Shown here piece by piece: positions 5,995 to 64,000 of a stretch of DNA of 64,000 nt. Origin of the DNA: a virus; IMG/VR virus record IMGVR_UViG_3300045988_172855, one strand, 5' to 3'. Below the pieces are notes generated by a model. The model was not told where the DNA came from, did not search any database, and was given only the letters and a program-made list of their open reading frames with translations. Position numbers and translations under genes: made by a program. Numbering within the stretch: the stretch's first letter is position 1; each line of letters opens with the position of its first letter.

Positions 5995-6006
5995 AATAAC
6001 ACTGTT

Positions 6007-6570: not shown

Positions 6571-6596
6571 AATCAATTTGTTTTAGGTTTTCAAAA

Positions 6597-6636
6597 AGAG
6601 AAAGGAGAGGAGTTTATGATCTCTCCTCCCCTTTCT
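6597..6636 (-). terminator. hairpin after major capsid gene
   Basis: Purine/pyrimidine arms AGAGAAAGGAGAGGAG / CTCTCCTCCCCTTTCT give about 12 bp of pairing with one mismatch. On the - strand it is followed by CTTTTTG. Confidence 0.55.
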
Positions 6637-6656
6637 TTAGTTGTTTTTATTTGTTT

Positions 6657-9715: not shown

Positions 9716-10565
9716 CCTTTATATGTTCCATTGTCAACGAATTTACGAAATTATCAATCAATTTATCTATTTCTCGATACTTTCTGACTTGCTTCCAATC
9801 TTCAATATCGACTTCCTTATGAATCCCCATTAATGCTCCAAATAAAGCTGCATTTGTATCCGTATCAAATCCTAAATTCACTACGTCACAAAGGTCTTCT
9901 TTTAAGGTAGAACTCTTTGTTCTCAATTTCAAATAATTATCTAAAATCAAGTTATATGTATTAATAACATCTCCTCGATTTTGATAACTATCAACCGAAA
10001 AATCGAACTTGATATTTTCTTGCGGTAAAGCTCTCAACAATTTTTCAAGTAAGCAACAATAATTACCACCAAACTTAAAACAATTAGGATTATTATGAGT
10101 GAATAAGCTAAAAAAGTTGAATAAACTCATAGTCTCTGAAGCTACGAACTCCTTTTTCGTAGATCTATAAATTGCAACAGGAAGAGCATAAAACATTGCA
10201 CCGTTTCCCATCGAATCTGTTCTCGGACAACCATTCCTCATAATAGAAGATGATGTTTGCGATCCTATATCGAATAATCCTTCTCCTGCATTGAAACCTT
10301 TATTATGATACCAATCCTTTAGATTATCTCTCATTTTATTAAAAACATCCATCATATTATTCGTCTTAATAGAAAGTGCATCTATAAGACATAACAGAAT
10401 AGATGTATCGTCAGACCAAGTGCCAATCGGTTGATTATGATATCCTCCTTTTGAAAATCCGACGCAATTAAATTTGGTCGGATTTTGAAATTCAAAAGGA
10501 ACTCCTAAAGCATCGCCAATTATATAAGCTCTGATACTATTCTTTATCTTTTCTATCGTTTTCAT
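9708..10565 (-). CDS. ADP-ribosylglycohydrolase (ARH/DraG family)
   Basis: N-terminal IIGDALGVPFEF, WSDDTS, and C-terminal GFDTDTNAALFGALMG are the hallmark ARH metal-binding motifs. Confidence 0.85.
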   Translation of the reverse strand: MKTIEKIKNSIRAYIIGDALGVPFEFQNPTKFNCVGFSKGGYHNQPIGTWSDDTSILLCLIDALSIKTNNMMDVFNKMRDNLKDWYHNKGFNAGEGLFDIGSQTSSSIMRNGCPRTDSMGNGAMFYALPVAIYRSTKKEFVASETMSLFNFFSLFTHNNPNCFKFGGNYCCLLEKLLRALPQENIKFDFSVDSYQNRGDVINTYNLILDNYLKLRTKSSTLKEDLCDVVNLGFDTDTNAALFGALMGIHKEVDIEDWKQVRKYREIDKLIDNFVNSLTMEHIKDV

Positions 10566-13300: not shown

Positions 13301-13314
13301 AATAATATAAAATA

Positions 13315-13333
13315 GGAGGAGGATATCTCCTCC
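13315..13333 (-). terminator. short hairpin after Nudix-protein gene
   Basis: GGAGGA..TCCTCC 6-bp stem, followed on the - strand by TATTTTATATTATT. Confidence 0.35.
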
Positions 13334-13338
13334 ATTAA

Positions 13339-15483
13339 TTAATGTAACTGTAAACGATATTTGGTTTGTTTCAATGTAGCAAGGAAATCTTCTGTCCAAG
13401 ACTTTTCACCAACATAATCAGTATGATCATCAATTTTACCATAGAACTTCTTGGTACGATCTATGATCAAATCAATCAAACCAATAGGATCGTTGACTTC
13501 AATTTCTTCACCATTTACAGAACCGTCTTCAAATCGACCAAATTCACTTTGACCTGCTTCCATGATCTTGTCTTCGTAATCAGAAAGTTCCTCAATCAAA
13601 TCATCGAGATAAACGTGTTTGGAATTATCTAACTCTCCCCAATGTACATTTTTTGATCTTGTTTTCGCACCTTCAAGAAAATTAGCATAATCAACGAAAA
13701 CGTTATACATAGCATCTTTAGCTTTTTGAACACCATCGTCTAAAGACGGATCTCTATGAATCTCGTCGTGTATCTCGTCAATACCCCATGCTTTTTCAAT
13801 CTCCTCGTTCTTAGTTTCAATCGAAGCAATATCTAATTTACCTGAATCTTTCATTTCATCAACCAATGACTTAAACATCTCTGCTTGATCTAAATCATTA
13901 AAATTGATTAATATATTGAAACCTTGTACATCGTCTTCAACTTTCTGAGATTTTTCAATATTCTCAGTCTTCTGAAGACTATACATGCGAATATTGCCCT
14001 TAAAATCCCAAGTTTGCTCACCATTTTCTTCTGTAGACAATGTTATAGAAAATTTCCTTCCTAAGTTAGATACCTTTTGTAACGTTCCTAAGAAATCAAA
14101 TAATTTATCACCATTACCACCGTCATTATCGCTATAACCAAAACTTGCATTTCCGTATGTATATTTTTTAGGATTTTCAGTAGCATCGACAACTCTCTCT
14201 ACATACTCAACCTTTTTAAAAGTAATTGCCTTTTCGATACCATCTCCGTCAGGTTTCTTTGTCTCACCCTCAAGACTTTCCTTACAAATTGCATTCACGT
14301 CATTACAATCCATAGTTTTTTCAACCTCGTTCCATGATTCAGGTAATTCGTTTGTTGCACCAAGATCTTTTGCTCTGCGTTTCAAATAAGCAATTACATC
14401 TGATTTAGGAAGGTCTGAATTACCAACCAACTTGATTGCGTTTTTCAGATCAGAACGATTGCGAACAGGAAAACGACCGCCTACCATAGCTTTTCCTTCT
14501 TTCTCAAGTTTTGCACGCTCTTTCTCAGAAATATAAGATTTTGCTATACAAGATAATTCAGGCTTATTGACTTCTTTTTCAATTTCCTCTTTATGTTTTT
14601 TACAAAAATCTTCAAAAATCTTTTCATTGATCTCACCTCGAGCAAATGCCTTTGTTATAATCTGAATAGGTCCTTCCGGACACTCTCTACCAAGAATCTT
14701 TTTGATATTTTCTTTCATATCAAAAATAAAATCGTAGTCATCTAACTCTGTTCTAGTATCGATCCAAGTACTTCCAACTTCTTCTTCGCTATCGACAATA
14801 ATCTGTATAGGCGATTCATCGTCAACGTGACCTAAGAAATAATGAATCTCGTAATCTTTGCCTTTTGCAACACCTGCTTCAATCAAAAGATCTTCGGGGA
14901 TCTCAATACCTGTTTCTTCAAACAATTCTCTTGCGGCTGCTTCGAGAAAACTTTCTCCTGGATCAACGTGACCGCCAGGTATACACCATTGTTGTGTACT
15001 TGCTCCGTATTCACCAGCTCTTTGTAAAATCAAAAGTTTATCACCTCTAAACAACAATACATCGGCATAGCGTACTTTACCAGTCTTAGCCTTGATTATA
15101 TCATTATAAACTGATTTCGAAATATTCCCTTTCTTTAATTCGTTCTTTGCTGAATAGATGTTATAAATATCATTCAAAGTATCACTTATCTCTTTATCGG
15201 CAGATAATTTTGATAACGATTTAAAAATCTGTTCTCTTTTTCTTTGAACAATAGCAATATTTTTAGCATGTTCTTCTAAAAATTCATTATAACGTTTTTC
15301 TGCATCTACTCGCTCCTTCTCATCTAAAGTTGAAAAACTTTTAGCGATTGAACTTTTTTCAGCAAAAAGAGTTGATAAATCACTTATTTCGTTCGCAATC
15401 TCGAAAGATTTCTTCAACAAACTTCTATATTCAGCAACTTTCTCTGAATTAGATTGTAAATTAAATAATTTCTTAATATTCAT
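13339..15483 (-). CDS. 714-aa Nudix-domain protein (virion module)
   Basis: Perfect Nudix box GHVDPGESFLEAAARELFEETGI (14905-14976 also covers the Gly residue before it; fits GX5EX7REUXEEXGU). N-terminal coiled coil. The C-terminal KNVHWGELDN..LDDLIEEL..D.IMEAG is weakly Dps/ferritin-like. Confidence 0.8.
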   Translation of the reverse strand: MNIKKLFNLQSNSEKVAEYRSLLKKSFEIANEISDLSTLFAEKSSIAKSFSTLDEKERVDAEKRYNEFLEEHAKNIAIVQRKREQIFKSLSKLSADKEISDTLNDIYNIYSAKNELKKGNISKSVYNDIIKAKTGKVRYADVLLFRGDKLLILQRAGEYGASTQQWCIPGGHVDPGESFLEAAARELFEETGIEIPEDLLIEAGVAKGKDYEIHYFLGHVDDESPIQIIVDSEEEVGSTWIDTRTELDDYDFIFDMKENIKKILGRECPEGPIQIITKAFARGEINEKIFEDFCKKHKEEIEKEVNKPELSCIAKSYISEKERAKLEKEGKAMVGGRFPVRNRSDLKNAIKLVGNSDLPKSDVIAYLKRRAKDLGATNELPESWNEVEKTMDCNDVNAICKESLEGETKKPDGDGIEKAITFKKVEYVERVVDATENPKKYTYGNASFGYSDNDGGNGDKLFDFLGTLQKVSNLGRKFSITLSTEENGEQTWDFKGNIRMYSLQKTENIEKSQKVEDDVQGFNILINFNDLDQAEMFKSLVDEMKDSGKLDIASIETKNEEIEKAWGIDEIHDEIHRDPSLDDGVQKAKDAMYNVFVDYANFLEGAKTRSKNVHWGELDNSKHVYLDDLIEELSDYEDKIMEAGQSEFGRFEDGSVNGEEIEVNDPIGLIDLIIDRTKKFYGKIDDHTDYVGEKSWTEDFLATLKQTKYRLQLH

Positions 15484-15514
15484 AGCTATTCATATTTTGG
15501 CCTAAATATACGGA

Positions 15515-17458: not shown

Positions 17459-17658
17459 TGTTTTGATATATTAAGCATTTCTTTTGTCAAGTCGGCCATC
17501 ATATTGTTTGTTTGAGTAGAAAAAATAACTTGCGCTAAGCCTTCATACCCACACTGAACCTTAGGATATCTTATAGGATCCTTTGTATGATATATTATAT
17601 TAGATGTTTTAGCCATCTGCTTTACATCTATACCATTTATGTGTTTTATAGGAGGCAT
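17455..17658 (-). CDS. hypothetical protein
   Basis: Track ORF with an ATG start, coupled between the portal and MuF genes. Confidence 0.5.
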   Translation of the reverse strand: MPPIKHINGIDVKQMAKTSNIIYHTKDPIRYPKVQCGYEGLAQVIFSTQTNNMMADLTKEMLNISKQ

Positions 17659-19364
17659 TACTTATACAAATTTTTTCTATAATAATCAATTGCCGGTCCC
17701 ATTATAGGATCGTTTGAAAATGACTTGTATTTGTCAAAAGGATTCTCTTCCATTTCTTCATCCATTGGAACACCTTCTTCCTCACTTTCTCCTGGAACAG
17801 AAGCTCCGTACATCTCTTGTTGTTGTTTTGTTGCCTGTGCCGTTTGATAAACCTGATTCAAAATAATGTCGTTCTCAGGATCAAACTCTCTACCTGAATA
17901 TTTCTTAAAGATATCTTGCATAGCAACCATACCCATTTCTAATTTATCTTTATCGAGTTTTACTTGAGCTTCTTCGTCTTCTACTTCAATACCCGTAAAA
18001 ACAAACTCGAAATCTTCATTTAATTCACTTACAAGATATTCAGTGATAATATTCTGCAAAAAAATCAATAATGGTTTTAAACCCTTTTCTCTACTATGTT
18101 GCAAACGTTGTTTTTGGCCATCTTGTCCAAAAATTTGAGCTTGGTCTTTAAATTGAAAACCTAACTCTGTAGGATCCATTCGATAAACAGCACAACTAAT
18201 AATAATCAAAAATTTCAACCACTCATTGAATTCCATATCTCTATTGTTCTTTTGCAGATCAATCCACTCAAGATCAATTCCGTTGATTACAGGAACCCTA
18301 TGACTATTCTGAACACCTTTCATTGTTTGTGACCAGGCTTGTCTAAACTCGTTAAGTGTAGAATTTGAAATATTTGCATTTTTTACATTGATAAATCCTT
18401 TAGGTTGTGAACCTTGACTAAAGAAGTTACCATTATATTGCATGCCCCATAAAATCCAAGTTATTATCTCAACCAAAGTTTCGAGTTCAGATGTTCCATA
18501 ACCATTTCTTCGAATATTAGACGATTTATTTCGAATACCGAAACCCAATTCCCATGGATAATATAATATAGGTTCTTTTGTTATAGGATTTTTCAAAATC
18601 AATTCATCCCACACCATACAATAACGAGGAAGATATCCTCTATAACGATAATCTTCTAACGATTCTCTTTGTCTAGGATCAACACTATCTAAAAAACGAA
18701 TCATCGAAGCGTCTACAGCTCTGAATTTATTTAACTCCCAATTACGATTTCGTACAATTTCAAATGCAAGTTGATCGAGTGTAAGACTATCGAATGTTAT
18801 CTTACGAACAAATGTTTGCAGATCATCAACGTTATCCCACTTTTCTGTCCATCCACCTCGTTCTAAAAACTTAACAATATTTTCTATCTTTTTCTTATCT
18901 TCTTCGCTTAATTCTTCTTCATCTCGATCTTTAAAAAGACCTTTCTTTCTACGAATCGTAAATCCTTCTTTTTGTTCATCTTCTGAGAAGTGAAGAAAAT
19001 TTTGAATTTGCTCAATACGAGTATTGACGATAGCACGAATAATCCATAAGTCACCCATCTTTCGAAGAGTTTCGAAAGACAAAATCCCCCTAGAATCTTT
19101 AAAACCCTTTCCATTACCTGATAAATCGTTAGGATCAAAGAATACAGAGGTGATCTTACCTGAATTTGGATTCAATTCACCTAAATATAAATTCGCTTTC
19201 ATCAACTCATTAGGATCATTTGAATTTAATGACGCTTGTAGTTTGCTTTGAAATGCATAAGGAATTGCTTTCTGCAACTTATTGAGATCGTCTAAAGAGA
19301 GATCAGTCAGGTTTTCAAAACCTGACTGTTGACTCTTATAATTAGTTTTTCTTTTTCTTCCCAT
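17658..19364 (-). CDS. putative portal protein
   Basis: 568 aa, immediately upstream of MuF, with an acidic C-terminus. The call rests on position and size. Confidence 0.6.
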   Translation of the reverse strand: MGRKRKTNYKSQQSGFENLTDLSLDDLNKLQKAIPYAFQSKLQASLNSNDPNELMKANLYLGELNPNSGKITSVFFDPNDLSGNGKGFKDSRGILSFETLRKMGDLWIIRAIVNTRIEQIQNFLHFSEDEQKEGFTIRRKKGLFKDRDEEELSEEDKKKIENIVKFLERGGWTEKWDNVDDLQTFVRKITFDSLTLDQLAFEIVRNRNWELNKFRAVDASMIRFLDSVDPRQRESLEDYRYRGYLPRYCMVWDELILKNPITKEPILYYPWELGFGIRNKSSNIRRNGYGTSELETLVEIITWILWGMQYNGNFFSQGSQPKGFINVKNANISNSTLNEFRQAWSQTMKGVQNSHRVPVINGIDLEWIDLQKNNRDMEFNEWLKFLIIISCAVYRMDPTELGFQFKDQAQIFGQDGQKQRLQHSREKGLKPLLIFLQNIITEYLVSELNEDFEFVFTGIEVEDEEAQVKLDKDKLEMGMVAMQDIFKKYSGREFDPENDIILNQVYQTAQATKQQQEMYGASVPGESEEEGVPMDEEMEENPFDKYKSFSNDPIMGPAIDYYRKNLYK

Positions 19365-19383: not shown

Positions 19384-20868
19384 TTATACACCTGCTTGTG
19401 TTAAAGTAACTGTAATAGTTTTACCTCCTTCACTTGCAGCAACCTTCGCTTGTCCTGTTCTTTGAGAACCTGTGTTATTTGCAGCAATTACAGAATATTC
19501 AGAATCTCCTTTAGAAAAACCTTCTCCTGTAACAGTTGTAGTATAATTCACAGCAGAAGCTGGACCACTAATTTTACCATTTGCTTTCTTTTGTTTCTTA
19601 CTTGAAACGCTAAAAATTTTCGTTTCACCTGCTGCGATAAATGAAAGTGAATCAGGATCTACATCTAAAGTATATTCATAAGTTACAACAGCAGCAGCTT
19701 GTGTAAGAGTAATTTCAGCAGTCTTTCCACCTTCAACAGCAGAGATAGTCACCTTACCTGTTCTTTGTGATTCAGCAGTATTTTCAGCCGCTACAACTGT
19801 TGTATCATTACTACCTTTCGTAAATCCTGCTCCTGAAACAGTAGTCGTGTAACCTACATTAACAGGAGAACCTGAATCGTTACCATTCAATTTTTTCTGT
19901 TTTACAGAAACAACATTAAACGATTTAGATTCACCTGCTGCAGCGAATGAAATATTTGTAGGAGTAGGAAGTAAGGAGTATTCATACGTAATAACTGATG
20001 CAGCTTGTGTAAGATTAACTGTCGCACTCTTACCACCTTCATCCATAGTAATCGTGATTTCCCCAGTTCTCTGTGTATTACCTGGATTTTCTTCTGCTTT
20101 GATATTAAATCCATCTGAAATAGCACTATAAGAAAATCCTACACCAGCAACTTCAATATGTGTTCCAATATTCGTAGGATTTCCGGAAGGTTTTCCGTTT
20201 ATTATAACTTGTTTTGTTGATGTAACAGTAATCTTTTTTGTTTCACCTGTATTTACAAACGAAAGTGAATTAGGATCTATTGTTAAGTTATATGTATAAC
20301 TTACTGTAGAAGCTTCTTGTGTAAGATTGATAGTAATCTTCTTATTACTTTCATGTTGTGTTACAGTTAAAACACCGTTTCTTACAGAAGTAGTCGGATT
20401 TTCAGCAATAGTTACTGTACCACCTTTACTTACTGTGTAAGGAGATTTTGTTTCAAAGTCAACTTCCAACGGTGTTTGTACACCTGTCGGCTTTCCGTTT
20501 ACATAAAGTTGCTTATAGGAAGTAACAACAGCCTCTATGCTGTCACCTTCCTTGGGAAACGCCATTGTCTTATCTTGCGGAATAAGAAAATAACGCATCT
20601 CTTCAACTATATCAACGAGAATCTGCTCCTTTCCTTCATATTCTTCAGGATAAGCAATGAGACGTAATATATTATTCATTGCCCATTCTTTAAATTGACC
20701 TATATTATAGGTGAGACCTGCTCGAATAACTATTCCGAGACTTTCAAAGTAATCCACATCTCCCACTGTATTCTCTGTAACAAATACATTCAACTGACTG
20801 TCGATACCGTCAGTAATAACAGTCAGTTGATGGAGATTATCTTTTGTTGTAAATAATAATCTATACAT
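19384..20868 (-). CDS. virion-module protein with 3-4 tandem BACON/Ig-like repeats
   Basis: Repeats of about 101 aa each end ..N(T/P)..QRTG.(V/I)T....GGK....(L/V)TQA(A/G). The N-terminal ~100 aa is paralogous to 20874..21455. Confidence 0.5.
   Translation of the reverse strand: MYRLLFTTKDNLHQLTVITDGIDSQLNVFVTENTVGDVDYFESLGIVIRAGLTYNIGQFKEWAMNNILRLIAYPEEYEGKEQILVDIVEEMRYFLIPQDKTMAFPKEGDSIEAVVTSYKQLYVNGKPTGVQTPLEVDFETKSPYTVSKGGTVTIAENPTTSVRNGVLTVTQHESNKKITINLTQEASTVSYTYNLTIDPNSLSFVNTGETKKITVTSTKQVIINGKPSGNPTNIGTHIEVAGVGFSYSAISDGFNIKAEENPGNTQRTGEITITMDEGGKSATVNLTQAASVITYEYSLLPTPTNISFAAAGESKSFNVVSVKQKKLNGNDSGSPVNVGYTTTVSGAGFTKGSNDTTVVAAENTAESQRTGKVTISAVEGGKTAEITLTQAAAVVTYEYTLDVDPDSLSFIAAGETKIFSVSSKKQKKANGKISGPASAVNYTTTVTGEGFSKGDSEYSVIAANNTGSQRTGQAKVAASEGGKTITVTLTQAGV
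19387..20304 (-). repeat. three full ~303-nt tandem coding repeats (a degenerate fourth copy extends to ~20556)
   Basis: The protein repeats span aa 189-289, 291-391 and 393-494, as aligned by eye. Confidence 0.6.
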
Positions 20869-42517: not shown

Positions 42518-42946
42518 TTAGCATGAAATAAATTCTTTTATCTTGGTCTCTGAGATTTGAACGACACGAGACTCATTTATAATCTCCTCTTTTAATATTT
42601 TAGAGGTTATTATTCCGGCTTCAGTATTGTTCGCAGCCTCAACTAAATACGAGATCTTATTTTCTTTAACTTTATCATTCGTGTCATTTACAGTTAAGAA
42701 AATGCACTTACACAAAAACCAAAATCCCTTTTCTTTATTCGGATGAACTTCACTTACACCTATCTCTTTTATAGGTGAAATTACGTAATCGACATCAAGA
42801 TTTTCGTTAGCCCATTGTGTCGCTTGAGCTTCAGCATCTGTATAATTCTCAGCTTTACACGCGATTACATCTGAAAACTTCTTCATTTTGGGATAACGAG
42901 AATCAGTATCGTCATCCCAATAAGTTATCGTTATTTCAAAGAACAT
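42518..42946 (-). CDS. hypothetical protein
   Basis: Track ORF with an ATG start. It overlaps the DpdA-like gene by 11 nt. Confidence 0.5.
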   Translation of the reverse strand: MFFEITITYWDDDTDSRYPKMKKFSDVIACKAENYTDAEAQATQWANENLDVDYVISPIKEIGVSEVHPNKEKGFWFLCKCIFLTVNDTNDKVKENKISYLVEAANNTEAGIITSKILKEEIINESRVVQISETKIKEFISC

Positions 42947-43721
42947 CGTTACAACATTCTCTTAAAAAGTTAACATTCTTTTTTATAAGATCCATTATAT
43001 TAGGATCGATTTCACGATCAAAGTAATCTGCAGGAGTTGGAACTCTTACGAATTTTTCACTGTCACTCAAATCAATACCGTTCATTGCAGCGAGAATAGG
43101 ATAACAACTGTCTGTCGATCTAAACCTCATACCTGTGTACGGAATGAACTCTCTCGGATCACCTTGACCTAAGAAATGTAACTGTTTGCGTAACAAATTC
43201 ATACTCTTCAAACGTGACACAACTACTGATCGAGAATAAGCTATATTATCACTCTCCATAATATGCGGAATCGCCTTCTTACTCATACCAATACAAGTCA
43301 CGTATCTACTCATCAAAAAGAATCTGTAGCAATCAAGCCATTCATCCCAATTCTTACCTTGAGGACAAGCAAGTAGACTTGTAAACATTAAGTTACTCTT
43401 TGCTCTTTCGATTTTCAACCACTCAACAAATTGATTAAAATTTCTCATCGTCTCATTGCGATTGTATAGAACATCTAAAGGAATGACCTCATTCGGTTGA
43501 ATCTCTTTCGTCAGCTTAAACAACTCTTCGTTAGTCAACACTTCGCCTTCATCACCAACACCCGAATCCAATATTGTGAAACGACCGTCTGCAATTGCTT
43601 TTTTAGTATATTCTCGATACTCAGAACTCTTCTTATACAATTGTCCTAAGATATAAAAATTCTTATCGCCTAGTTCACTTAACTCTAAATGACTCATAGG
43701 AGGTGTTACAAATACTCTCAT
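42936..43721 (-). CDS. dpdA: tRNA-guanine-transglycosylase-fold protein, DpdA-like DNA transglycosylase
   Basis: ILDSGVG matches TGT DSGGFQ. LLACPQGKNWDEW matches GIVQGG. LHFLGQGDPREF...FRSTDSCYPILAAMNG matches YLMGVGxPxD...MFDCVxPTRxARNG. At 261 aa it is the size of phage DpdA proteins. Confidence 0.6.
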   Translation of the reverse strand: MRVFVTPPMSHLELSELGDKNFYILGQLYKKSSEYREYTKKAIADGRFTILDSGVGDEGEVLTNEELFKLTKEIQPNEVIPLDVLYNRNETMRNFNQFVEWLKIERAKSNLMFTSLLACPQGKNWDEWLDCYRFFLMSRYVTCIGMSKKAIPHIMESDNIAYSRSVVVSRLKSMNLLRKQLHFLGQGDPREFIPYTGMRFRSTDSCYPILAAMNGIDLSDSEKFVRVPTPADYFDREIDPNIMDLIKKNVNFLRECCNDVL

Positions 43722-44635
43722 TCTTCAACGTTTTTTATTATAGTTAAATTATCATATTCTTCGTTTATAAGATATTCAATAAAATCATCGAAACCAATTG
43801 ATTTCTCGCCACTCAAAACATCTTCGAATGATTTATCTTTATCTTTCGAAAACAATCTCTTTTCAAATCGAAGTCTTCTTTTAGATTTAGGTACAGAAAG
43901 ATATATTACATGATAATCTTTTTGATCTAAACCTAATGTAACCCCTTTAAACACTTCAATCTGTCGACAACCTGTAACAATAATGTTCTCACAACCTTCA
44001 GAAATAGCTGATTTTATCAAATCGTTAAGCATCTCAACAATACTTTCATTAAGACACTTATTAAAAATTCTATCTTGTGTGTTTGTCAAATGACGAACAA
44101 TATCACCTACTTCAAATATAACATGTTTTTCACCTACATTTTTCTTCTTGTCTGATAACTTTTGAGTAAAATAAGTTTTACCCGAACAACAACCGCCTAC
44201 AACGAAAAGTATATTCACATTCTGTTTAGAATTACATTCACTTTGTTGTTCTTTTTCACCATCTTCAGGAACTTTTTTTACAACAGCATAGTTTTCACCA
44301 TCTTCACTTACTTCCACCTCTTCGAAATCAAATTGCTTTAACACTTTCTTAGCAATCTGTTCGCAAGATTGACTTCCGAAATCATATATTGCTGTACCTG
44401 CAATGATGGGTGTATTGTGTTTTATATAACTTTCAACTCTATTCTTGAGTAATATAAACTCTTCATCACGATTATCGTGATTAACCCGTTTTTTACAATT
44501 AAATTTGAAAAGATGACGGTGCGGTTGCTCAAGAAACTTAACACCATCACCGTGATTTGCTGAAGCATTTGGATAACAATGCATACCTTCGATTTCGAAT
44601 TTAATCCCAACCAATGTTTCTAATTTTGTTCTCAT
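43718..44635 (-). CDS. fusion of QueD/PTPS-like T-fold domain and P-loop NTPase/kinase domain
   Basis: The N-terminal half has a His triad GMHCYP...EQPHRHLF, compared with QueD AAHRLP...RLHGHSF. The C-terminal half has a Walker A motif, VVGGCCSGKTYF. Confidence 0.45.
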   Translation of the reverse strand: MRTKLETLVGIKFEIEGMHCYPNASANHGDGVKFLEQPHRHLFKFNCKKRVNHDNRDEEFILLKNRVESYIKHNTPIIAGTAIYDFGSQSCEQIAKKVLKQFDFEEVEVSEDGENYAVVKKVPEDGEKEQQSECNSKQNVNILFVVGGCCSGKTYFTQKLSDKKKNVGEKHVIFEVGDIVRHLTNTQDRIFNKCLNESIVEMLNDLIKSAISEGCENIIVTGCRQIEVFKGVTLGLDQKDYHVIYLSVPKSKRRLRFEKRLFSKDKDKSFEDVLSGEKSIGFDDFIEYLINEEYDNLTIIKNVEE

Positions 44636-44636
44636 A

Positions 44637-44891
44637 TCAATAAGTTATGTTAAATCTTTCTTTCGCTTTCTCAGGTCCTATACCGTAAGTCTTACATAGA
44701 CATCTCTTCTTATATTGACATAAATTAACAGGACCTCTATAAATCACTTTTCCATCAAATACCAATCTCATTATCTTTTCGCCGTTGATATTTTTATTTC
44801 TACTTTTACGAAAATTTTTTCGTTCTTCATCAGTCATTGATTTCGACCAACCATTTTTATGATAAATGAAATTTTTTAATGTTTCGTCCAT
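44637..44891 (-). CDS. hypothetical basic protein
   Basis: The track start at 44897 is TTG. The ATG is at 44891. Confidence 0.5.
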   Translation of the reverse strand: MDETLKNFIYHKNGWSKSMTDEERKNFRKSRNKNINGEKIMRLVFDGKVIYRGPVNLCQYKKRCLCKTYGIGPEKAKERFNITY

Positions 44892-44893
44892 AA

Positions 44894-45223
44894 TCAATCT
44901 CCCGGCTCAATTATACATATCGGTATCGCTGGATATTGTAGAACTAAAGGAATACACCTCGAATCGACTTTAGTATTCTTTCTCTTTAGATCTGCCATTA
45001 CTTGTGTAAATTTCTCTCTTTCTATTTTAATACACAATGGCTTAGGTCTATACTTCGAATCTTTCTGAGTCTCAATTCGTTCCATCTGCATGTGAATTTC
45101 AAGTGCTTCTTTACAAGGTAGGAATTTTTCAAGACTAGGAATCTTATTCGCACTAATTAACATTACTTTATCACCGCGTACCGTTTCATTAATGACAGGT
45201 ACAAACATCTTTTCTTTTTTCAT
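44894..45223 (-). CDS. hypothetical protein
   Basis: The track start at 45232 is GTG. The ATG (MKKEKMF) is at 45223. Confidence 0.5.
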   Translation of the reverse strand: MKKEKMFVPVINETVRGDKVMLISANKIPSLEKFLPCKEALEIHMQMERIETQKDSKYRPKPLCIKIEREKFTQVMADLKRKNTKVDSRCIPLVLQYPAIPICIIEPGD

Positions 45224-45233
45224 ATTTTTCACT

Positions 45234-57470: not shown

Positions 57471-58844
57471 TCACTTCTTACCTCTCTCAGCACGCAATCT
57501 TGCTAATTTATCTTTAACAGATTCAGAAACAGCTCTAGATGCCTTTGTTGCTGCTTTTTCTACAGGCGACTCATCTGCAGCGGCGGCTTCTTGTGAATCA
57601 CCCTCATCAAAAGGGAGGTCTTCAACAACTTTTTCTTTATAGTCGTCAAACGGAAGCATCATCCCTTGTTTCATCAAATCGTACCACTTACGCATTTCTA
57701 CGATAGGTAGATCAGGTAATACTTCAGTTCCTTCGTATTCTGTTTCGATATATTGTTTCAATTCCGCCTTCATTTTGATCAATGGAGGATAACCTGAAGT
57801 TGTTGATTTTGAAGCTGTTTGTGTTGGCTTTGCAGAAGGTTCGCGTTTGACAGAAACTCTAACTTCGTCCTCTTGCTCATCTTCTTCATCATCATTAGAA
57901 GAAACTGTAGTTTTCTTAACGTCTTCAACTTCCGGAACAAGTGCTTCCAATTGTTCCAAACGATCTAAAAATTCATCGTTTTCAAAAACATCAAAACCAT
58001 ACTTTTCATCAATTCTTTTAAGACCTTCAAGCTGCATATCCCAATCCTTGCGCGAAAAGACGTCTACATATTGATCTTCTAATGAAGGTAATTGATCTAA
58101 TACTTCAAGAACTGAATCAGGCACTCTATTAGATTCGAAAAACTCATCCCAAGTCTCACCTACTTCAGGCAAACCACAAGAAAGATCGTAAACATTTTTC
58201 TTCTTTTCATCCTTGTAATAGTTGATAATCAACGGATACCCTGTTTCGTGATCAGAAAATACGTCCAAACTCACTGCCTTCTTTGATCTCTCAATAGAGA
58301 TTGACTTCATAGCCTTCCACCATTGAGGACGAATATCCATGCGGTGAATTTCCTTGTCATATAAAACATAAGCTACGTAATTCAATGTAGGAGCTATTCC
58401 CCATACCCATTCACCGTTTGTTTTACGAAATCCAGTAATAGGAGCTCTAAATTTCTTACGCTCATCAGAATCCTGAATTTCTGCAGCCATTTTATCTATA
58501 TATTCAATATATATCGCAACAGCATCTTGACCTTGCATTCGATCACTGTGTACATCTGATGTAAAGACGTCTTTCATTCGAATCTCTTTTTTACCAGTAT
58601 CTTTACCATCTTTGTCAAAAACAGTACACTCGATAGGTAATTTTGCACACTTGCGAGGAATATACGGTCTTTGAGTTTCAGAAGGTAAAATTCGAATCTC
58701 ATAACGACCTTCTTTTGCAAGGGATAAAAAACTTGCTCGACCGCCTTGTTTGCCGAACTGACTCATTGTTTCTTGAGCTTTATTCAAGTTTTCATCTACT
58801 TCTTCAATGTTAGCTTTTTTAAATTTCGAACGATCAAATGCCAT
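57471..58844 (-). CDS. gp32-like single-stranded DNA-binding protein
   Basis: GRYEIRILPSE parallels T4 gp32 GQAVIRFLPSK. It has an acidic, Ala-rich C-terminal tail and sits next to the recombination genes. Confidence 0.5.
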   Translation of the reverse strand: MAFDRSKFKKANIEEVDENLNKAQETMSQFGKQGGRASFLSLAKEGRYEIRILPSETQRPYIPRKCAKLPIECTVFDKDGKDTGKKEIRMKDVFTSDVHSDRMQGQDAVAIYIEYIDKMAAEIQDSDERKKFRAPITGFRKTNGEWVWGIAPTLNYVAYVLYDKEIHRMDIRPQWWKAMKSISIERSKKAVSLDVFSDHETGYPLIINYYKDEKKKNVYDLSCGLPEVGETWDEFFESNRVPDSVLEVLDQLPSLEDQYVDVFSRKDWDMQLEGLKRIDEKYGFDVFENDEFLDRLEQLEALVPEVEDVKKTTVSSNDDEEDEQEDEVRVSVKREPSAKPTQTASKSTTSGYPPLIKMKAELKQYIETEYEGTEVLPDLPIVEMRKWYDLMKQGMMLPFDDYKEKVVEDLPFDEGDSQEAAAADESPVEKAATKASRAVSESVKDKLARLRAERGKK

Positions 58845-58848
58845 AATT

Positions 58849-59136
58849 TTAATTTTTTAATTTGTTAATAATTTTATTTACTACTTCGTTACTGATTTCT
58901 TTATACTGATTAATATACTCTTGAAATGTTTTAAAATCTTCCTCTTTTTCAAAAATTTCAAAGTCTGCAATCTTTTTAGAAAGATGTTCAAGCGAAAGAC
59001 CATAAGCAATTGCAGTTTCAACTCTCACATTCTCCTTTCCTCCTCGATTACCGTAAGAGACTTTAATCAAATCCCAATTAAAGGGTGCATGTAAACATTG
59101 TTCTATGAAAAATGTTTCAGTTAATTTTATCCTCAT
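58849..59136 (-). CDS. hypothetical protein
   Basis: Track ORF. Confidence 0.5.
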   Translation of the reverse strand: MRIKLTETFFIEQCLHAPFNWDLIKVSYGNRGGKENVRVETAIAYGLSLEHLSKKIADFEIFEKEEDFKTFQEYINQYKEISNEVVNKIINKLKN

Positions 59137-59663
59137 TGTTTCGGTTTATGTATTATAAATGAATTAATTTTGCCTTCAACCAATTCTTGAAAAAATTCCT
59201 TTGGTACAACTTTAGGGAGTAAATTATTCAACTTTTGATCTTTACTTCTGATTGCCCAAAATAAAGAATCGAGTTTATCTCTCTTAGATTCAAGTTCAAT
59301 CTGATCTAGTACCGCTTTTTGATACTCCTCATTCAAAAGAATGATTTCATCAAGACCTTTTTCTGTCAACTTTACAGCTTCACCATCAACAGAAACTTGT
59401 CCGTGATTTTTCAGAGCTTCTCTACGATACTTTTTCTTTAATTGAGATACAAAAACGTCACAATAAAGTTTAGCTTCTTTAGCTTTTCGCTCATACTCAG
59501 CTTTCCACATTCCAACCTTATTTAGCAAAGCTGAAATCGTTACAGCTTCACCATATAAGTTTGAATAGTTAATCGTTGTTACTTCATCTAATTCAATATC
59601 TTCATCTGCATCAGGTGAATGTAAAACGATTGTTTTATCTCCTTCTTCTACTATGATATTCAT
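59133..59663 (-). CDS. hypothetical coiled-coil protein
   Basis: Track ORF with an ATG start, 22 nt after the promoter box. Confidence 0.5.
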   Translation of the reverse strand: MNIIVEEGDKTIVLHSPDADEDIELDEVTTINYSNLYGEAVTISALLNKVGMWKAEYERKAKEAKLYCDVFVSQLKKKYRREALKNHGQVSVDGEAVKLTEKGLDEIILLNEEYQKAVLDQIELESKRDKLDSLFWAIRSKDQKLNNLLPKVVPKEFFQELVEGKINSFIIHKPKQ

Positions 59664-59684
59664 ATCTATCTTTGTTTTATATAG

Positions 59685-59716
59685 GTAAAATTACTGTTTA
59701 TTTTAGTTTAATCCAA
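59685..59716 (-). promoter_or_regulatory. Bacteroidota-type promoter (TTG-N20-TAATTTTAC)
   Basis: The - strand reads TTGGATTAAACTAAAATAAACAGTAATTTTACC. Confidence 0.5.
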
Positions 59717-59759
59717 CAAACTTTTCTTGAATGAGTCATTGTTTGTTTTGAATTTTTCA

Positions 59760-62700
59760 TCAACTTAAAACAGTAAATGACGTATTCAAATTTGTTTGTA
59801 GAACATATTCTTGTCTCCACTTGTCAAATTGAATATATCCATCTACCAATAGAAGATTGTTTTTACTTTCTCTCAAAAAGTCGGCATATTCAGCGAACAA
59901 ATCAGGGAAAACAATTACATTTATAAATTCGTAATTACTTTCTAAAACTATTGTTGCGAACAATCCTTTCTTCGATTTACGCTCGATAATATCAATAACA
60001 AAACCTCCGATAATCGCACACTTAGAGCGATCGTTGCCATCCCAATATTTCAACTCACTTACATCAAAATATTCTGCATCTGAAAATGCATCGTCTGAAT
60101 GATACTCCTCAATTAGACGTTTATAATCAAAAGACGCAAATCCGGATAACTTCTTCTGTTGTAACGTCCACCACCAATCGTTTTTCTCCTTTCTTGCTTT
60201 TATAATGTTAGTTAAAAGATCCTTATCTTCAAGAATTTTTACTCTCTTATTCTCACGATAAGACTCTATTAATCTCAATCGTTCGTGTGGTGCAGTGATG
60301 TTTTCAAGTTTATCGAACGCTCCACTATAAATGAGATTTTCAATAACTGACTTATTGACTGGCGAACCTTTTACAACACAACGATCAATAAATTCATCTA
60401 ATGAGAAAAATTCACCATGTTTTTCTCGTTCATTGTGAATAAACTCTTGAGCTTTATCTCCACATTGCTTCACTGAATTCAAAGCCCAATACATACTACT
60501 TGTTTTGACATCAGAAACAATGTTTATATCACTTTTATTTATATCAACAGATTTAATTGTAATATTACCTAACTTCTGAATTTCATTGATGTAAAACGGA
60601 TAATCCTCAATCTTCGCATGTGAGAATGTTACAGACCAAAACTCAATGGGATAATGAGCTTTCAGCCAAATGCAGTTATATCCATTTCTCGAGTACGCAA
60701 TTGCATGACTAAAATTAAAAGCATACTTACCAAACTCCTCCATCTGTTTCCAAAGATCTTGAGCATACTTTTCTTCAACTCCAAAACGCTCAACATAACC
60801 TTTTACAAATTTATCGCCAAAACTCTTTAATTTAGATGTAATTTTTTTACCCATGCAATTATGAGCTAAAATTCCACCTACAAAAGCGTACGGGCTTCTA
60901 TCAGATGTCATTGTAAAATCATAAACAGGAAGTTTACCAACCCTATCGTAAGATTCTACTTTCAAAAAACAGAATTCTCTTTTTAAAATGTTTTCAAGAT
61001 ATTTACTTCTTCCACATCTTTTCAATATTTTTTCAGCTCTCCTATAAGTCAAGTCAAAAGGACGATTGATTCCGTAATTCAAAATATTCTTTCCTAACAA
61101 CTCATTGCAATTATATCCGGAATGATCAATGAGATTTTTAATAATAGGTTGCCAAATTTCAAAAGGTATTTTGTATTGACTATAAGAATCTAGATCAAAA
61201 TCCTCTAACTTAAAATTAAATCGTTCTTTAATTTTTGTCGAATATGGTTCGAGCATTGCTTTGATCTTCAAAGCGTCTTCAATAGAAGAAATTCCTATAT
61301 CATAATATTTCTCAGGATATTCTGCAAAACTTCTTGAATTTGTTGTAGTTAAAACTCCAAGACAACTAAAAAGAATATTTATCTGATCAATCAATTCCTT
61401 TGATTTAGAAGAATAACCTATTAATAACCCTCCCTTTTTAGAAGCAACATAGCCATCAAAATCAATTAATTTCCCAAGAACAAATAATTGACATTCTTCA
61501 TTTAAAGAAAAAATGTAGTCAGGTAACCTTTTTTCATCTGATTTAACAAATTCAAGACCTAAATCTGTAACAACAGAGTCTTTTATCTTTAAGCTCGTAC
61601 ATCCTGTATATTGATTATAATATTCTTTAGGCTCTTCTCGAACAAATTCTTTATAACATCTTTTAAATTCACTCAATTCTGACTCATCTTTATTAACAAA
61701 ATTACACGAACCAATAGTTCCTATAGATCCTTCTGTCAATAAAGCTATCATTAAATAAAGTTCTTCTTTAGATTTAGATAGTGTTCCAAATCTTCTACTA
61801 AGATCTTTGTAAACATAGTGTCCTACACAATCCTTAGCTTCTAACCAACCAACTTCTGTTAATAATTTATGATCCGGAGTGCATGTAAAGTGATTGTCTC
61901 CTTGCATATTCAATTTAATACACTCCTTTTCTTTTTTATAAACTCTTCTATAAACCTTATTCCATTTGAAACAACACTCTTTTTCATTATACGTAGTAAC
62001 GGAAGTAAATGGTTTTATATTTTTAATTTTAACAGCTCCATCAGGAGTCCAAAACAATTCTTCACCCCAAATACATTTTCTCACTGAATCTGTCGTTTCT
62101 AGGTCAAATCCTGCCAAATGCTGACATAATCTCATTATATCCTCCTGAGTAATCAATAATCCTAAATGTGGACGAAGAATATCTTCTGCTCCTATAGGAT
62201 ATTCGATTTCACTTTCACCTCTCTTTCTCAAGATATATTCATTGTGATAATTATTTTCAATTGGACCAGGACGATATAATGCTGCACATAATCCCATTTC
62301 ATCGAGACTGTGTGGTTTCATCTGTACACAATACGAAGAAAGTCCTTTTGCGCCAAAATGAAAAACGTCACCTAAATAACCTTTTTCAATGTACTCAAAA
62401 ACAATTGGATCGTCTAAAGGAACGTCATTATAAAGATCTAATTTGATACCACGATTTTTCTCAATCAATTTTAAAATATCAGCTAATTTATCAAGCTGAG
62501 CAATTCCTAAAATATCTTCTTTCAAAAAACCAGCTTCTTCAATTTCTGCACCTTCCCATTCTGTCACTACCAGTCCATTAGACTCTCTAACTGGCACCCA
62601 TTGTGCTGACGATTTCTCATCAGGATATACGACTGTACCACATGCGTGAATTGATGCTGATTTAGGAGAATTCAAACAAACCATAACGTCATTGATTAAT

Positions 62701-63044
62701 TCTGTATGACTTTTAACAAACTCTCTTAACTCTGTATCACTGCAGATAACTCTGAAAAAATCTTCAATACTTTTCATACCCTCCTCGTCTCTCAATTTAG
62801 AAGTAATTCTTCTAACTGTTCCTATCGAAATACCTTCACAACGAGCAAGATCTGTAATTGCAGCTTTTAATTGCATTGTCGTATATGTTCCAAGTGACGT
62901 CACTTGCGTTATACCAAATCTTTTTTCCATATACTCTTTAACTCGAGGGCGTTGTTGGCCTTCAAAGTCTGTATCAATATCAGGCATCGATCCGAGTTGT
63001 CTTATTTCTTGAACTTCTTTTTTAAGACTTTTAATCGTTATCAT
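59760..63044 (-). CDS. dnaE: DNA polymerase III alpha (DnaE-type), C-terminal 4/5, intein-containing
   Basis: It starts just before the catalytic PDIDTDF. It also has GTVVYP and FLKEDILG, the RK-[intein]-CMGKK motif (E. coli RRAMGKKK), FNFSHAIAY, and a C-terminal OB-like region. Confidence 0.85.
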   Translation of the reverse strand: MITIKSLKKEVQEIRQLGSMPDIDTDFEGQQRPRVKEYMEKRFGITQVTSLGTYTTMQLKAAITDLARCEGISIGTVRRITSKLRDEEGMKSIEDFFRVICSDTELREFVKSHTELINDVMVCLNSPKSASIHACGTVVYPDEKSSAQWVPVRESNGLVVTEWEGAEIEEAGFLKEDILGIAQLDKLADILKLIEKNRGIKLDLYNDVPLDDPIVFEYIEKGYLGDVFHFGAKGLSSYCVQMKPHSLDEMGLCAALYRPGPIENNYHNEYILRKRGESEIEYPIGAEDILRPHLGLLITQEDIMRLCQHLAGFDLETTDSVRKCIWGEELFWTPDGAVKIKNIKPFTSVTTYNEKECCFKWNKVYRRVYKKEKECIKLNMQGDNHFTCTPDHKLLTEVGWLEAKDCVGHYVYKDLSRRFGTLSKSKEELYLMIALLTEGSIGTIGSCNFVNKDESELSEFKRCYKEFVREEPKEYYNQYTGCTSLKIKDSVVTDLGLEFVKSDEKRLPDYIFSLNEECQLFVLGKLIDFDGYVASKKGGLLIGYSSKSKELIDQINILFSCLGVLTTTNSRSFAEYPEKYYDIGISSIEDALKIKAMLEPYSTKIKERFNFKLEDFDLDSYSQYKIPFEIWQPIIKNLIDHSGYNCNELLGKNILNYGINRPFDLTYRRAEKILKRCGRSKYLENILKREFCFLKVESYDRVGKLPVYDFTMTSDRSPYAFVGGILAHNCMGKKITSKLKSFGDKFVKGYVERFGVEEKYAQDLWKQMEEFGKYAFNFSHAIAYSRNGYNCIWLKAHYPIEFWSVTFSHAKIEDYPFYINEIQKLGNITIKSVDINKSDINIVSDVKTSSMYWALNSVKQCGDKAQEFIHNEREKHGEFFSLDEFIDRCVVKGSPVNKSVIENLIYSGAFDKLENITAPHERLRLIESYRENKRVKILEDKDLLTNIIKARKEKNDWWWTLQQKKLSGFASFDYKRLIEEYHSDDAFSDAEYFDVSELKYWDGNDRSKCAIIGGFVIDIIERKSKKGLFATIVLESNYEFINVIVFPDLFAEYADFLRESKNNLLLVDGYIQFDKWRQEYVLQTNLNTSFTVLS
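60858..62075 (-). mobile_element. 406-aa intein with LAGLIDADG homing endonuclease, inserted in the DnaE RRAMGKK motif
   Basis: Starts CIWGEELFWTPDG (Cys1 codon 62075-62073). Block B is TCTPDH. Two LAGLIDADG motifs: LMIALLTEGSIG and VLGKLIDFDGY. Ends VYDF...FVGGILAHN (Asn codon 60860-60858), with a +1 Cys. Confidence 0.8.
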
Positions 63045-64000
63045 AATCTAATAATATATCTCCTTCTTTTAATTCACCTGCTTTAACTATCATCTTTTCT
63101 TCGTTTCTAAAGATACGAACAAAACTTGTACAAGGTATAATAATAGGTGATGAACTTTCTTCGTTAATGATAACCTCTTCAATCTTATCGTGACGTATCA
63201 AACGACCTGTTGTTAAGAATCTTTCAAATAGTAGATCGTAATCAAGAGGATTAATATAATTCAATCCTAGTAAATACGAAATCAAACATCCACAAGCTGA
63301 ACCACGACCAGACCCAATTAGAATGTCTTCTTTCTTACACCACTTTACAATGTCTCTAAGCATTAAAAAATAGTCGACTACTTCACCATCTTCGATTACC
63401 TTCATCTCTTTTTCAAGTCTCTCAACAACTTCATCTTCAGAATAATTTTCAAGTATCTCAGGATGTTCTTCGAGTCCTTTGATTATGAGATCTTCAAACA
63501 TAGCAATATTATCTTCATATTGTAAAGCCTCTTCGTCAGTCATGTAATATACAGGCATGTGTCTATTTTGAGTCTCTATTACAAAGTTACATTCAAAAGA
63601 AATTTCTTTCAAATTTTGAACAGCTTTTTCAAATGTATCAAAAAACGCCTCATCGTCTCCGAACAACTTACCAAGCTCTTCAAAATATTCTTGATAATTT
63701 TTCATATATTGATTATCACTTTCATAAGTAACGACCTTCGCTAAGGTATTCATTTTTCTCTTAATAGGAGACCATTCTTTTTCAACATAATACGCATCAC
63801 ACATTGCAACCGGATTCATTTTACTGTCAAAAAACTTTTTCAAATTTTTCAAGTAAAATTCATCACGATCATCTTTTTCGTATTCAACTGTATCTAATTG
63901 ATAAAATGAAATAATTTTCTTGAGTTCTCTTGGAATCTTCGTATAATCAATTGTTTTAGGATCCCATATAAAAATCAAACCCTCTTCACTCTCAAGAATA
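63031..64000 (-). CDS. dnaE: DNA polymerase III alpha (DnaE-type), N-terminal part (5' end beyond window)
   Basis: GSGRGSACGCLISYLLGL..INPL.YDLLFERFL matches E. coli GPGRGSGAGSLVAYALKI..LDPL.FDLLFERFL. The frame stays open to nt 64000 (the track 'start' at 63978 is an internal TTG). It ends in a 56-aa non-DnaE tail and overlaps the next ORF by 14 nt. Confidence 0.8.
   Translation of the reverse strand, partial: ILESEEGLIFIWDPKTIDYTKIPRELKKIISFYQLDTVEYEKDDRDEFYLKNLKKFFDSKMNPVAMCDAYYVEKEWSPIKRKMNTLAKVVTYESDNQYMKNYQEYFEELGKLFGDDEAFFDTFEKAVQNLKEISFECNFVIETQNRHMPVYYMTDEEALQYEDNIAMFEDLIIKGLEEHPEILENYSEDEVVERLEKEMKVIEDGEVVDYFLMLRDIVKWCKKEDILIGSGRGSACGCLISYLLGLNYINPLDYDLLFERFLTTGRLIRHDKIEEVIINEESSSPIIIPCTSFVRIFRNEEKMIVKAGELKEGDILLDYDND

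Follow-up and report, generated by a model that had tools for sequence, protein, structure and literature searches.

The 64,000-nucleotide stretch of viral DNA analysed here (the window; IMG/VR record IMGVR_UViG_3300045988_172855) very probably encodes two enzymes of a 7-deazaguanine DNA modification system: DpdA3 and a fusion of DpdL with a P-loop kinase domain. The kinase is a near-universal third component that belongs to the core of the DpdA3 pathway. A preliminary description of the window had placed the locus in a 7-deazaguanine DNA pathway, which is borne out by the homology and order of the modules shared with Cellulophaga phage phiST. On balance, the favoured explanation is that the two genes provide the downstream half of a phiST-type pathway replacing the dG of phage DNA by 2'-deoxy-7-deazaguanosine (dDG), and that the pathway runs partly on free nucleotides. 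DpdA3 and DpdL have been known since 2023; the fused architecture, the kinase as a near-universal component, and the association with MazG and further kinases are new. Literature searches on DpdA3, DpdL and deazaguanine in combination with a kinase or a pre-replicative step, with incomplete coverage of subscription journals, returned no post-2023 paper describing the kinase.

A DpdA3 gene and a DpdL-kinase fusion gene

Both open reading frames (ORFs) of the locus, 42936..43721 (261 amino acids) and 43718..44635 (305 amino acids), are present on the minus strand, as is every gene in the window. They overlap each other by four nucleotides (ATGA), and the 261-residue ORF overlaps the downstream ORF 42518..42946 by 11 nucleotides. 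Because the 261-residue ORF overlaps both adjoining genes, the arrangement is that of a tight operon. The two genes encode the following parts:

42936..43721, minus strand: predicted DpdA3-family guanine/7-deazaguanine exchange enzyme with a TGT fold, 261 amino acids (homology, AlphaFold2 and Foldseek, motifs)
44270..44635, minus strand: DpdL domain, a T-fold QueD paralogue, residues 1-122 of the 305-residue fusion (homology to CGPG_00067, signature)
44219..44269, minus strand: acidic disordered linker, residues 123-139 of the fusion (AlphaFold2, comparison of homologues)
43718..44218, minus strand: adenylate-kinase-like P-loop domain, residues 140-305 of the fusion (homology to CGPG_00066, Foldseek, profile)

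The 261-residue protein is a relative of DpdA in the tRNA-guanine transglycosylase (TGT) superfamily, where it falls into the DpdA3 subfamily. Its identity to CGPG_00065 of phiST is 38% (tblastn E 7e-56); CGPG_00065 is the founding member of the subfamily defined by Cui, Hutinet et al., NAR 2023 (PMC10516641). A tblastn search of GenBank phages retrieved the Cellulophaga phages phiST, phi13:1 and phi19:2 (38% identity, E 4e-51), Chryseobacterium phage MA9V-3 (41%) and Campylobacter phages of the CP21/CP220 type (24%; CP21_069, E 1e-4). PHROG 20335, which has no annotated function, matches the protein at 2e-53. A profile of the DpdA3 family built here matches gp206 of Flavobacterium phage immuto_2-6A, annotated as DpdA, at 2.9e-39, and BSTP10_071 of a Bacillus phage at 7e-27. 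The AlphaFold2 model of the protein has a pLDDT of 95.5. Approximately the top 50 Foldseek matches of the model in the PDB are TGT, ArcTGT or the bacterial DpdA 7ui4 (E 1e-5 to 3e-4, TMq 0.52-0.66, probability 1.0), and the unrelated HpaI aldolase barrels begin only at E 1.3e-4. The earlier view of the protein as a DpdA-like TGT relative is thus supported by both the phiST homology and the structural matches.

The TGT core motifs reported in the preliminary description are present as D52-S-G, P-Q121-G, L184-G-Q-G-D-P and T-D204-S-C-Y-P-ILAAM-N-G, and D52, Q121, L184, G185, D204 and S205 are invariant across 71 homologues. The last motif had been written as D(S/C)..P....NG; the motif itself stands, with five residues rather than four between P and NG, a spacing that is also found in TGT. 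The order of the motifs is collinear with D89 (DSGG), Q187 (QGS), G245 (GVGKP) and D264 (FDCVMP) of Escherichia coli TGT, so that the invariant, predicted catalytic pair D52 (DSG) and D204 (TDSC) corresponds to D89 and D264. A weak hhalign alignment also puts the TDSC of DpdA3 onto the FDCV of TGT. DpdA3 does not have the zinc-binding CxCxxC...H subdomain of TGT; 57 residues follow D204 up to its C-terminus. Pfam, NCBIfam, phmmer and hidden Markov model (HMM) searches against PDB sequences gave no TGT match for the protein; hhalign gave a probability of 0.2-10% against E. coli TGT and no significance against the classical DpdA of phage ACP17. A match to TGT PF01702 at an HHpred probability of 98.8% has been published for CGPG_00065 of phiST (PMC10516641). 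The predicted TGT membership rests on the fold, the collinear motifs, the phiST homology and this published match. Placement by profile searches outside the superfamily had been named as what would speak against the assignment: sequence profiles are non-significant, and the fold search returns TGT and DpdA. In isoelectric point and net charge, which were considered as indicators of the substrate, DpdA3 is no different from TGT or DpdA, and neither value discriminates.

Residues 1-122 of the fusion are 44% identical to the phiST DpdL, CGPG_00067, over 114 residues (E 2e-24), and match PHROG 17812 at 1e-29. The segment L35-E-Q-P-H39-R-H41-L-F43 has the published DpdL signature LxxxHRHxF, which stands in for the CxxxHGH of QueD (PMC10516641). 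DpdL is a paralogue of QueD and a proposed decarboxylase of 7-carboxy-7-deazaguanine (CDG) (PMC10516641). H39, R40, H41 and F43 are invariant in 36 homologues of the fusion, and H19 is also present in the window protein. The AlphaFold2 topology beta-beta-alpha-alpha-beta-beta (strands 6-19 and 39-52, helices 53-73 and 91-101, strands 106-111 and 114-120) is that of a T-fold, and hhalign aligns the domain with a phage QueD at E 1.5e-4. The Pfam PTPS family PF01242 is not matched at E<=0.1; the domain has Leu for the catalytic Cys and HRH for HGH. The preliminary description had recognised a QueD-like T-fold joined to a Walker-A domain. The fusion is real; however, its T-fold half is DpdL and not QueD, because of its homology to CGPG_00067 and the LxxxHRHxF signature.

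AlphaFold2 predicts two folded domains in the 305-residue protein, separated by a disordered linker (residues 124-136, pLDDT <50). The linker is acidic, and its length and sequence differ among the 36 fusion homologues. At least 67 protein clusters, 292-315 residues in length and many of them on contigs of ~100-107 kb, share the fusion architecture, as do 36 of 83 scanned DpdA3 loci (described below); therefore, it is not an assembly artefact. The DpdL family has 1,722 representatives at E<=1e-3. The best 150 of them include 94 stand-alone proteins, 34 DpdL::P-loop fusions and at least one DpdL::MazG fusion (P0188).

Other extensions of DpdL were also observed. The dpdL gene is joined repeatedly to homing-endonuclease domains, with an HNH-like N-terminus in MA9V-3 XQU63047 (L002 18647-19528) and P0262 and a LAGLIDADG domain in P0279, which suggests that mobile endonucleases target dpdL. 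Two recurrent C-terminal domains of ~150-200 residues without a Pfam match are fused to DpdL (P0286, P0303, P0306 and P0321; P0263 and P0284), one of which has the motif CF.G.E.EGP..G..LF.PG...Y.GAGN. Gp176 of Vibrio phage Bakedbeans has a 260-residue N-terminal extension ahead of DpdL. A Pfam search with ten DpdL proteins carrying unexplained extensions matched LAGLIDADG only.

The C-terminal 166 residues of the fusion, with the Walker A motif 146-GGCCSGKT-153, are 29% identical to phiST CGPG_00066 (E 1e-13) and 35% identical to MA9V-3 XQU63046 (E 7e-27). Both of these are small genes located between dpdL and dpdA3. CGPG_00066 was set aside in 2023 as being without homologues in other deazaguanine phages (PMC10516641). 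Pfam AAA_18 matches the domain at 31.9 bits (cut-off 29.4) and is the sole curated model to pass its cut-off; none of the curated nucleoside monophosphate (NMP) kinase families (ADK, thymidylate, cytidylate, guanylate) does so, and NCBIfam adk, at E 0.01, is far below its cut-off. The best Foldseek matches are yeast UMP kinase 1uky, UMP/CMP kinase 1uke and AK1 (E 7e-7 to 3e-6, TMt ~0.6). A family profile built from 20 diverse members was searched against solved structures. It matches, over its full length, the AMP-bound "adenylate kinase related protein" SSO1041 of Sulfolobus solfataricus (3lw7/3h0k) at E 3e-10, which is the only significant match; fish AK1s come next at E 0.03-0.1.

Across 64 distinct P-loop sequences, G152, K153, R189, G222, R224, Q225 and R256 are invariant and R253 is conserved in 59. 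Motifs resembling xxGDxxR and GxRQ are present. By contrast, the family has no invariant acidic residue after strand 2: position 178 is variable (D in 39, N in 12, E in 9, Q in 2 and S in 1 of the sequences), and position 175 is E in 41 of the 64. Because the set of arginines is invariant and the general-base acids of hydroxyl kinases are not conserved, the sequences tip the balance towards a phosphate-acceptor kinase acting on a nucleoside monophosphate. The preliminary description had offered two guesses for the domain, a novel kinase step or an energy partner like DpdB. The former is the better one, given the adenylate-kinase-like matches of both Foldseek and the profile. The latter has no homology support because DpdB is an ATPase with a ParB fold and the motif DGQQR (PMC10164549), and the domain has a P-loop kinase fold instead.

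Co-occurrence of the kinase with DpdA3 and location of the precursor genes

Eighty IMG/VR loci around DpdA3 homologues, together with the window, phiST, MA9V-3 and CP21, were scanned with locally built HMMs. Of 83 loci, 79 have DpdL and 77 have the P-loop protein, both invariably encoded upstream of DpdA3 on its strand. Usually the genes run in the order (QueD/QueE/FolE)-(MazG-like or dCTP-deaminase-like)-DpdL-P-loop-(FolE)-DpdA3. Unsupervised clustering of the neighbouring ORFs placed DpdL and the P-loop protein in one family, the only one to accompany DpdA3 almost throughout (80 of 82 loci); the next commonest neighbour is FolE (33 of 82). When the loci were reduced to 25 clusters at 70% DpdA3 identity, DpdL was present in 24 and the kinase in 21. 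Approximately ten of the 25 clusters have the fusion, both with and without a nearby FolE, and 12 encode a MazG-like or dCTP-deaminase-like protein no more than 10 kb from DpdA3.

The window contains no FolE, QueD, QueE, QueC, MazG or dUTPase-like gene according to tblastn, local HMMs at E<=10 and Pfam searches of 52 ORFs. The earlier report of a window without FolE, QueE and QueC therefore holds; however, FolE and QueE lie just beyond coordinate 64000. A 107,349-bp contig from the human gut (L095) is 100% identical to positions 58001..64000 of the window, a 6-kb overlap, and continues past the window end. It carries the 1094-residue piece of DNA polymerase III alpha that is found in the window. 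Five genes are located on the same strand of the contig, 1.3 to 4.5 kb past coordinate 64000:

beyond 64000 (L095), same strand: QueD (PTPS, E 3e-19)
beyond 64000 (L095), same strand: QueE (radical SAM)
beyond 64000 (L095), same strand: FolE (E 4e-46)
beyond 64000 (L095), same strand: MazG-like protein of the phiST CGPG_00068 family (local HMM, 4e-36)
beyond 64000 (L095), same strand: AAA_28 (NadR ribosylnicotinamide-kinase-like) kinase (31% identical to immuto gp203)

The precursor block occupies positions 4558-7737 of the contig, which correspond to ~65.3-68.5 kb of the window, just upstream of the polymerase III alpha gene. AAA_28 kinases also occur in ~130-kb Streptomyces phages and in Bacteroides phages DAC19 and DAC22.

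Judged by homology, the genome holds the complete phiST-type gene set in two blocks ~20 kb apart. FolE, QueD and QueE make CDG from GTP, and all dG in phiST DNA is replaced by dDG (PMC10516641). The phage with this gene set therefore probably makes dDG DNA. A preQ0-type base, the product expected in the preliminary description, does not agree with FolE, QueD, QueE and DpdL without a detected QueC, which is the phiST set for dDG. The search for precursor genes in the rest of the genome that had been proposed there recovered folE and queE, and did not recover queC in the ~83 kb covered. Because none of folE, queD and queE was found within 10 kb of DpdA3 in 36 loci or anywhere in the window, a clade devoid of these genes was considered, and it was rejected by the contig. 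The same may hold for the ~11 other clusters in which the three genes are missing from the surrounding 10 kb: their genomes may have them at another place.

Proposed pathway and alternatives

In the favoured explanation, FolE, QueD and QueE would supply CDG, and DpdL would take off its 7-carboxyl group to give the 7-deazaguanine moiety. DpdA3, with D52 and D204, would swap guanine for the 7-deazaguanine base on deoxyribose. The fused kinase domain would phosphorylate 7-deaza-(d)GMP, from which the host NDP kinase would make the triphosphate, and MazG would deplete the competing dGTP. The most economical reading is that at least part of the pathway would operate on free nucleotides before replication, because a pyrophosphohydrolase, an exchange enzyme and an NMP kinase recur together, the kinases are replaced non-orthologously, and G is replaced completely. 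The replacement was complete in all three DpdA3 phage groups that have been tested chemically (PMC10516641). Further points in favour of a nucleotide-level route are the MazG-like or dCTP-deaminase-like genes near DpdA3 in 12 of the 25 clusters, the PRA-PH protein of immuto and the HD domain of CP21, the failed expression of DpdA3 in E. coli and the ADG nucleoside detected in infected cells (both PMC10516641), and the missing zinc subdomain of DpdA3.

The substrate of DpdA3 is a separate matter. A free nucleotide or nucleoside, rather than DNA, is a possibility that we put at somewhat below even. Taken to its full extent, this leads to the tentative proposal that DpdA3 is a small-molecule guanine:7-deazaguanine exchanger acting on dGMP or deoxyguanosine and not a DNA transglycosylase, with the replacement being pre-replicative and mediated by the polymerase. 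The adenylate-kinase-like domain and, in some lineages, AAA_28 enzymes resembling nucleoside kinases would then build the pool of 7-deaza-dGTP, whereas MazG, dCTP-deaminase-like or HD hydrolases would remove dGTP.

Several points weigh against the favoured explanation. The activity of DpdA3, DpdL or the kinase has nowhere been measured. To our knowledge, the substrates of TGT-family enzymes are all macromolecules (tRNA, DNA or, for Cap10, the N-terminus of a protein), and no such enzyme is known to use a mononucleotide. Genes for dNMP kinases that serve nucleotide supply in general are frequent in phages, and phage ACP17 has a classical DpdA and DpdL with no adjacent kinase. Sequence-only tests (Pfam, PDB HMM searches, hhalign) do not place DpdA3 in the TGT family significantly, and Foldseek gives the Clostridium thermocellum polynucleotide kinase and APS kinase at E-values near those of the NMP kinases. 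QueC was not found in the ~83 kb examined, and ~24 kb, largely tail genes, were unseen. The presence of DpdA in every modified phage has been taken to indicate post-replicative insertion (PMC10516641).

Post-replicative insertion is the strongest alternative. In the published model, left unchanged, DpdL makes free 7-deazaguanine, which DpdA3 inserts into replicated DNA; the kinase would be a general dNMP kinase or an ATP-using helper of DpdA3 that is analogous, not homologous, to DpdB. We consider this model rather unlikely, even though it agrees with the TGT fold of DpdA3, whose nearest solved relatives include the DNA preQ0 insertase DpdA 7ui4, with the proposal of insertion after replication by those who described DpdA3 (PMC10516641), and with the requirement of bacterial DpdA for an ATPase partner (PMC10164549). 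However, expression of DpdA3 in E. coli failed with or without DpdL, and co-expression of the two left the DNA unmodified (PMC10516641). The kinase is adenylate-kinase-like and not ParB-like, and unrelated kinase subfamilies substitute for each other beside DpdA3, which speaks for a catalytic task that is conserved and against a specific protein-DNA machine. Furthermore, DpdL forms fusions with the kinase and, in another protein, with MazG, and NTP pyrophosphohydrolases co-cluster with the system. The other complete base replacements in phage DNA that we know of all go through the dNTP pool.

It is improbable that the kinase domain serves the chemistry of DpdL by phosphorylating or adenylating a 7-deazaguanine intermediate, either a nucleoside or a carboxylate. 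DpdL may then not be a simple free-base decarboxylase, and its substrate may be phosphorylated or ribosylated. The repeated fusion of the two domains would fit this role, and QueD, the paralogue of DpdL, uses a triphosphate-bearing substrate. The decarboxylase role of DpdL is itself a proposal, and its co-expression with DpdA3 failed to modify DNA (PMC10516641). However, decarboxylation requires no ATP, and Campylobacter, immuto and Bacillus phages keep a kinase beside DpdA3 with no DpdL in the regions examined. Therefore, the kinase tracks DpdA3 rather than DpdL.

About equally improbable is a 5'-OH polynucleotide kinase that heals nicks from base exchange or from damage by host nucleases: Foldseek ranks the C. 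thermocellum polynucleotide kinase among its top matches (E 2.5e-6), and the related CP21_070 has an HD plus P-loop kinase architecture, which we take to be that of the HD-Pnk end-healing enzymes, but the Asp of the D-x-x-R motif that is essential in polynucleotide kinases corresponds to the variable position 178, the sole significant profile match to a solved structure is the AMP-bound adenylate-kinase-related protein, and a kinase of DNA ends would have no obvious reason to be fused to a T-fold enzyme of small molecules.

The phages with DpdA3 are the only ones that exchange every guanine for a 7-deazaguanine. The fusion serves as a Rosetta stone, since it ties the previously dismissed phiST gene between dpdL and dpdA3 to the pathway, and the fold of the kinase points to nucleotide phosphorylation. 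If DpdA3 does act on free nucleotides, it would be the first TGT-fold enzyme to do so, which would explain the failed reconstitution of DpdA3 without the kinase. A further gain would be an enzymatic route to the reagent 7-deaza-dGTP, which is in wide use in sequencing and PCR. A fully G-substituted genome would affect the sequencing and restriction of a common gut phage.

Neighbouring genes and comparison with known systems

The locus is flanked by the following genes:

42518..42946, minus strand: DUF4494 protein, 142 amino acids, translationally coupled to the DpdA3 gene upstream of it (Pfam PF14902, E 4e-16)
44637..45232, minus strand: two small ORFs of 86 and 112 amino acids whose membership in the system is uncertain (no Pfam or PHROG match)

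The DUF4494 gene is located immediately 3' of DpdA3 in all 32 loci of the clade that includes the window, and a short DUF4494 ORF is also present inside the DpdA3 cluster of immuto_2-6A; its product could be an accessory, fourth component of the system. The two small ORFs sit between a UvrD-type helicase gene and the fusion gene, with a spacing of 1-4 nucleotides to the latter. Equivalents of both are found in the related contigs L003 and L004, and Pfam and PHROG searches with them gave no match.

A megablast search of 4 kb against GenBank phages gave zero matches, and the INPHARED collection holds no isolate of the phage. Scans of the window for tRNAs and Rfam families were both empty. Metagenomes of the human gut contain the phage very commonly, with one of its proteins indexed in 655 blocks of an assembly collection. 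A BACON-domain protein with an fn3 domain (19384..20868, minus strand) is encoded beside the portal gene 17658..19364; it suggests that the host belongs to the Bacteroidales, in keeping with the human gut as the source of the identical contigs.

The ORF 13339..15483 (minus strand) encodes a 714-residue protein with a NUDIX domain (E 3e-18) and, at the C-terminus, DUF5856. No other domain of the NTP-pyrophosphohydrolase type is encoded inside the window. The ORF is part of the structural region, not far from a gene for an ADP-ribosyl glycohydrolase (9708..10565), and overlaps 10784..13399 by 61 nucleotides in another frame. Recoding of stop codons had been suspected at 13400-15500 and was rejected because of this normal ORF. 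DNA polymerase III alpha is split over the overlapping ORFs 59760..63044 and 63031..64000 (both minus strand). Residues 522-579 of the downstream piece form a LAGLIDADG_3 domain, suggestive of an intein or of an inserted homing endonuclease. A GIY-YIG ORF at positions 5314-5994 of L006, a close relative, is missing at ~5194 of the window and from two other related contigs, a pattern resembling that of a homing endonuclease with polymorphic presence.

Complete replacement of one base is known from other phages. Phage T4 employs the dCTPase gp56, the dCMP hydroxymethylase gp42 and the dNMP kinase gp1, and cyanophage S-2L employs MazZ, PurZ and DatZ. Like the DpdA3 system, they bring together an NTP pyrophosphohydrolase, an enzyme that modifies the base and an NMP kinase, and one base is completely replaced. 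By contrast, the modifying enzymes of T4 and S-2L are not homologous to DpdA3, for which action on nucleotides is only proposed. The DpdA/DpdB/DpdC system of Salmonella Montevideo shares the TGT-fold exchange of guanine for 7-deazaguanine with an NTP-using partner. It differs in that DpdB is a ParB-fold ATPase, DpdA has ~400 residues, less than 0.1% of G is modified and the substrate is preQ0.

In Campylobacter Firehammervirus (CP220, CP21; dADG) and Flavobacterium Immutovirus (fdPreQ1), the cluster of the DpdA3 homologue includes a P-loop kinase as well as a nucleotide phosphohydrolase domain, which is HD in CP21 and PRA-PH/MazG-like in immuto. CP21_068 (AAA_28) and CP21_070 (HD plus AAA_33) flank the DpdA3 gene of CP21. 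The kinase domain of CP21_070 aligns with the P-loop family of the window at an hhalign probability of 84% (E 8e-6), and the AAA_28 kinases of CP21 and immuto are 33% identical to each other. The DpdA3 cluster of immuto_2-6A encodes an AAA_28 kinase, a PRA-PH hydrolase and a protein with a phosphoribosyltransferase domain in addition to the DUF4494 ORF. The ADG nucleoside has been detected in CP220-infected cells, and the DNA of immuto_2-6A contains 100% fdPreQ1 (PMC10516641). Both genera make a final base other than the dDG expected of the window phage, and DpdL was not seen in the regions examined; immuto additionally has DpdN, QueF and the phosphoribosyltransferase-domain protein.

In Bacillus phage BSTP10, a P-loop "thymidylate kinase" gene overlaps the start of the DpdA3 homologue by four nucleotides. 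BSTP10_071 and its relatives in ~55-kb Bacillus subtilis phages (L094 3896-4684) are DpdA3-family genes annotated as "polynucleotide kinase", "NadR" or "integrase". BSTP10_071 follows genes for QueD, a radical-SAM protein, FolE and a P-loop kinase, and precedes that for DNA polymerase I. Bacillus phages of this type probably carry an unrecognised 7-deazaguanine modification.

The closest likeness is to phiST. Every phiST module has a homologue in the window phage, the order MazG-DpdL-P-loop-DpdA3 is shared with phiST, and QueC is undetected. CGPG_00067, 00066 and 00065 stand in the same order as the modules of the window, with CGPG_00068 as the MazG-like protein, and the DpdL signature and the size and motifs of DpdA3 are equal. 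The window phage differs in that DpdL and the CGPG_00066 homologue form one polypeptide, in the ~20 kb of replication genes that separate QueD, QueE, FolE and MazG from DpdL-DpdA3, and in the additional AAA_28 kinase and DUF4494 genes. The host of phiST is a marine Cellulophaga, whereas that of the window phage is probably of the gut Bacteroidales type.

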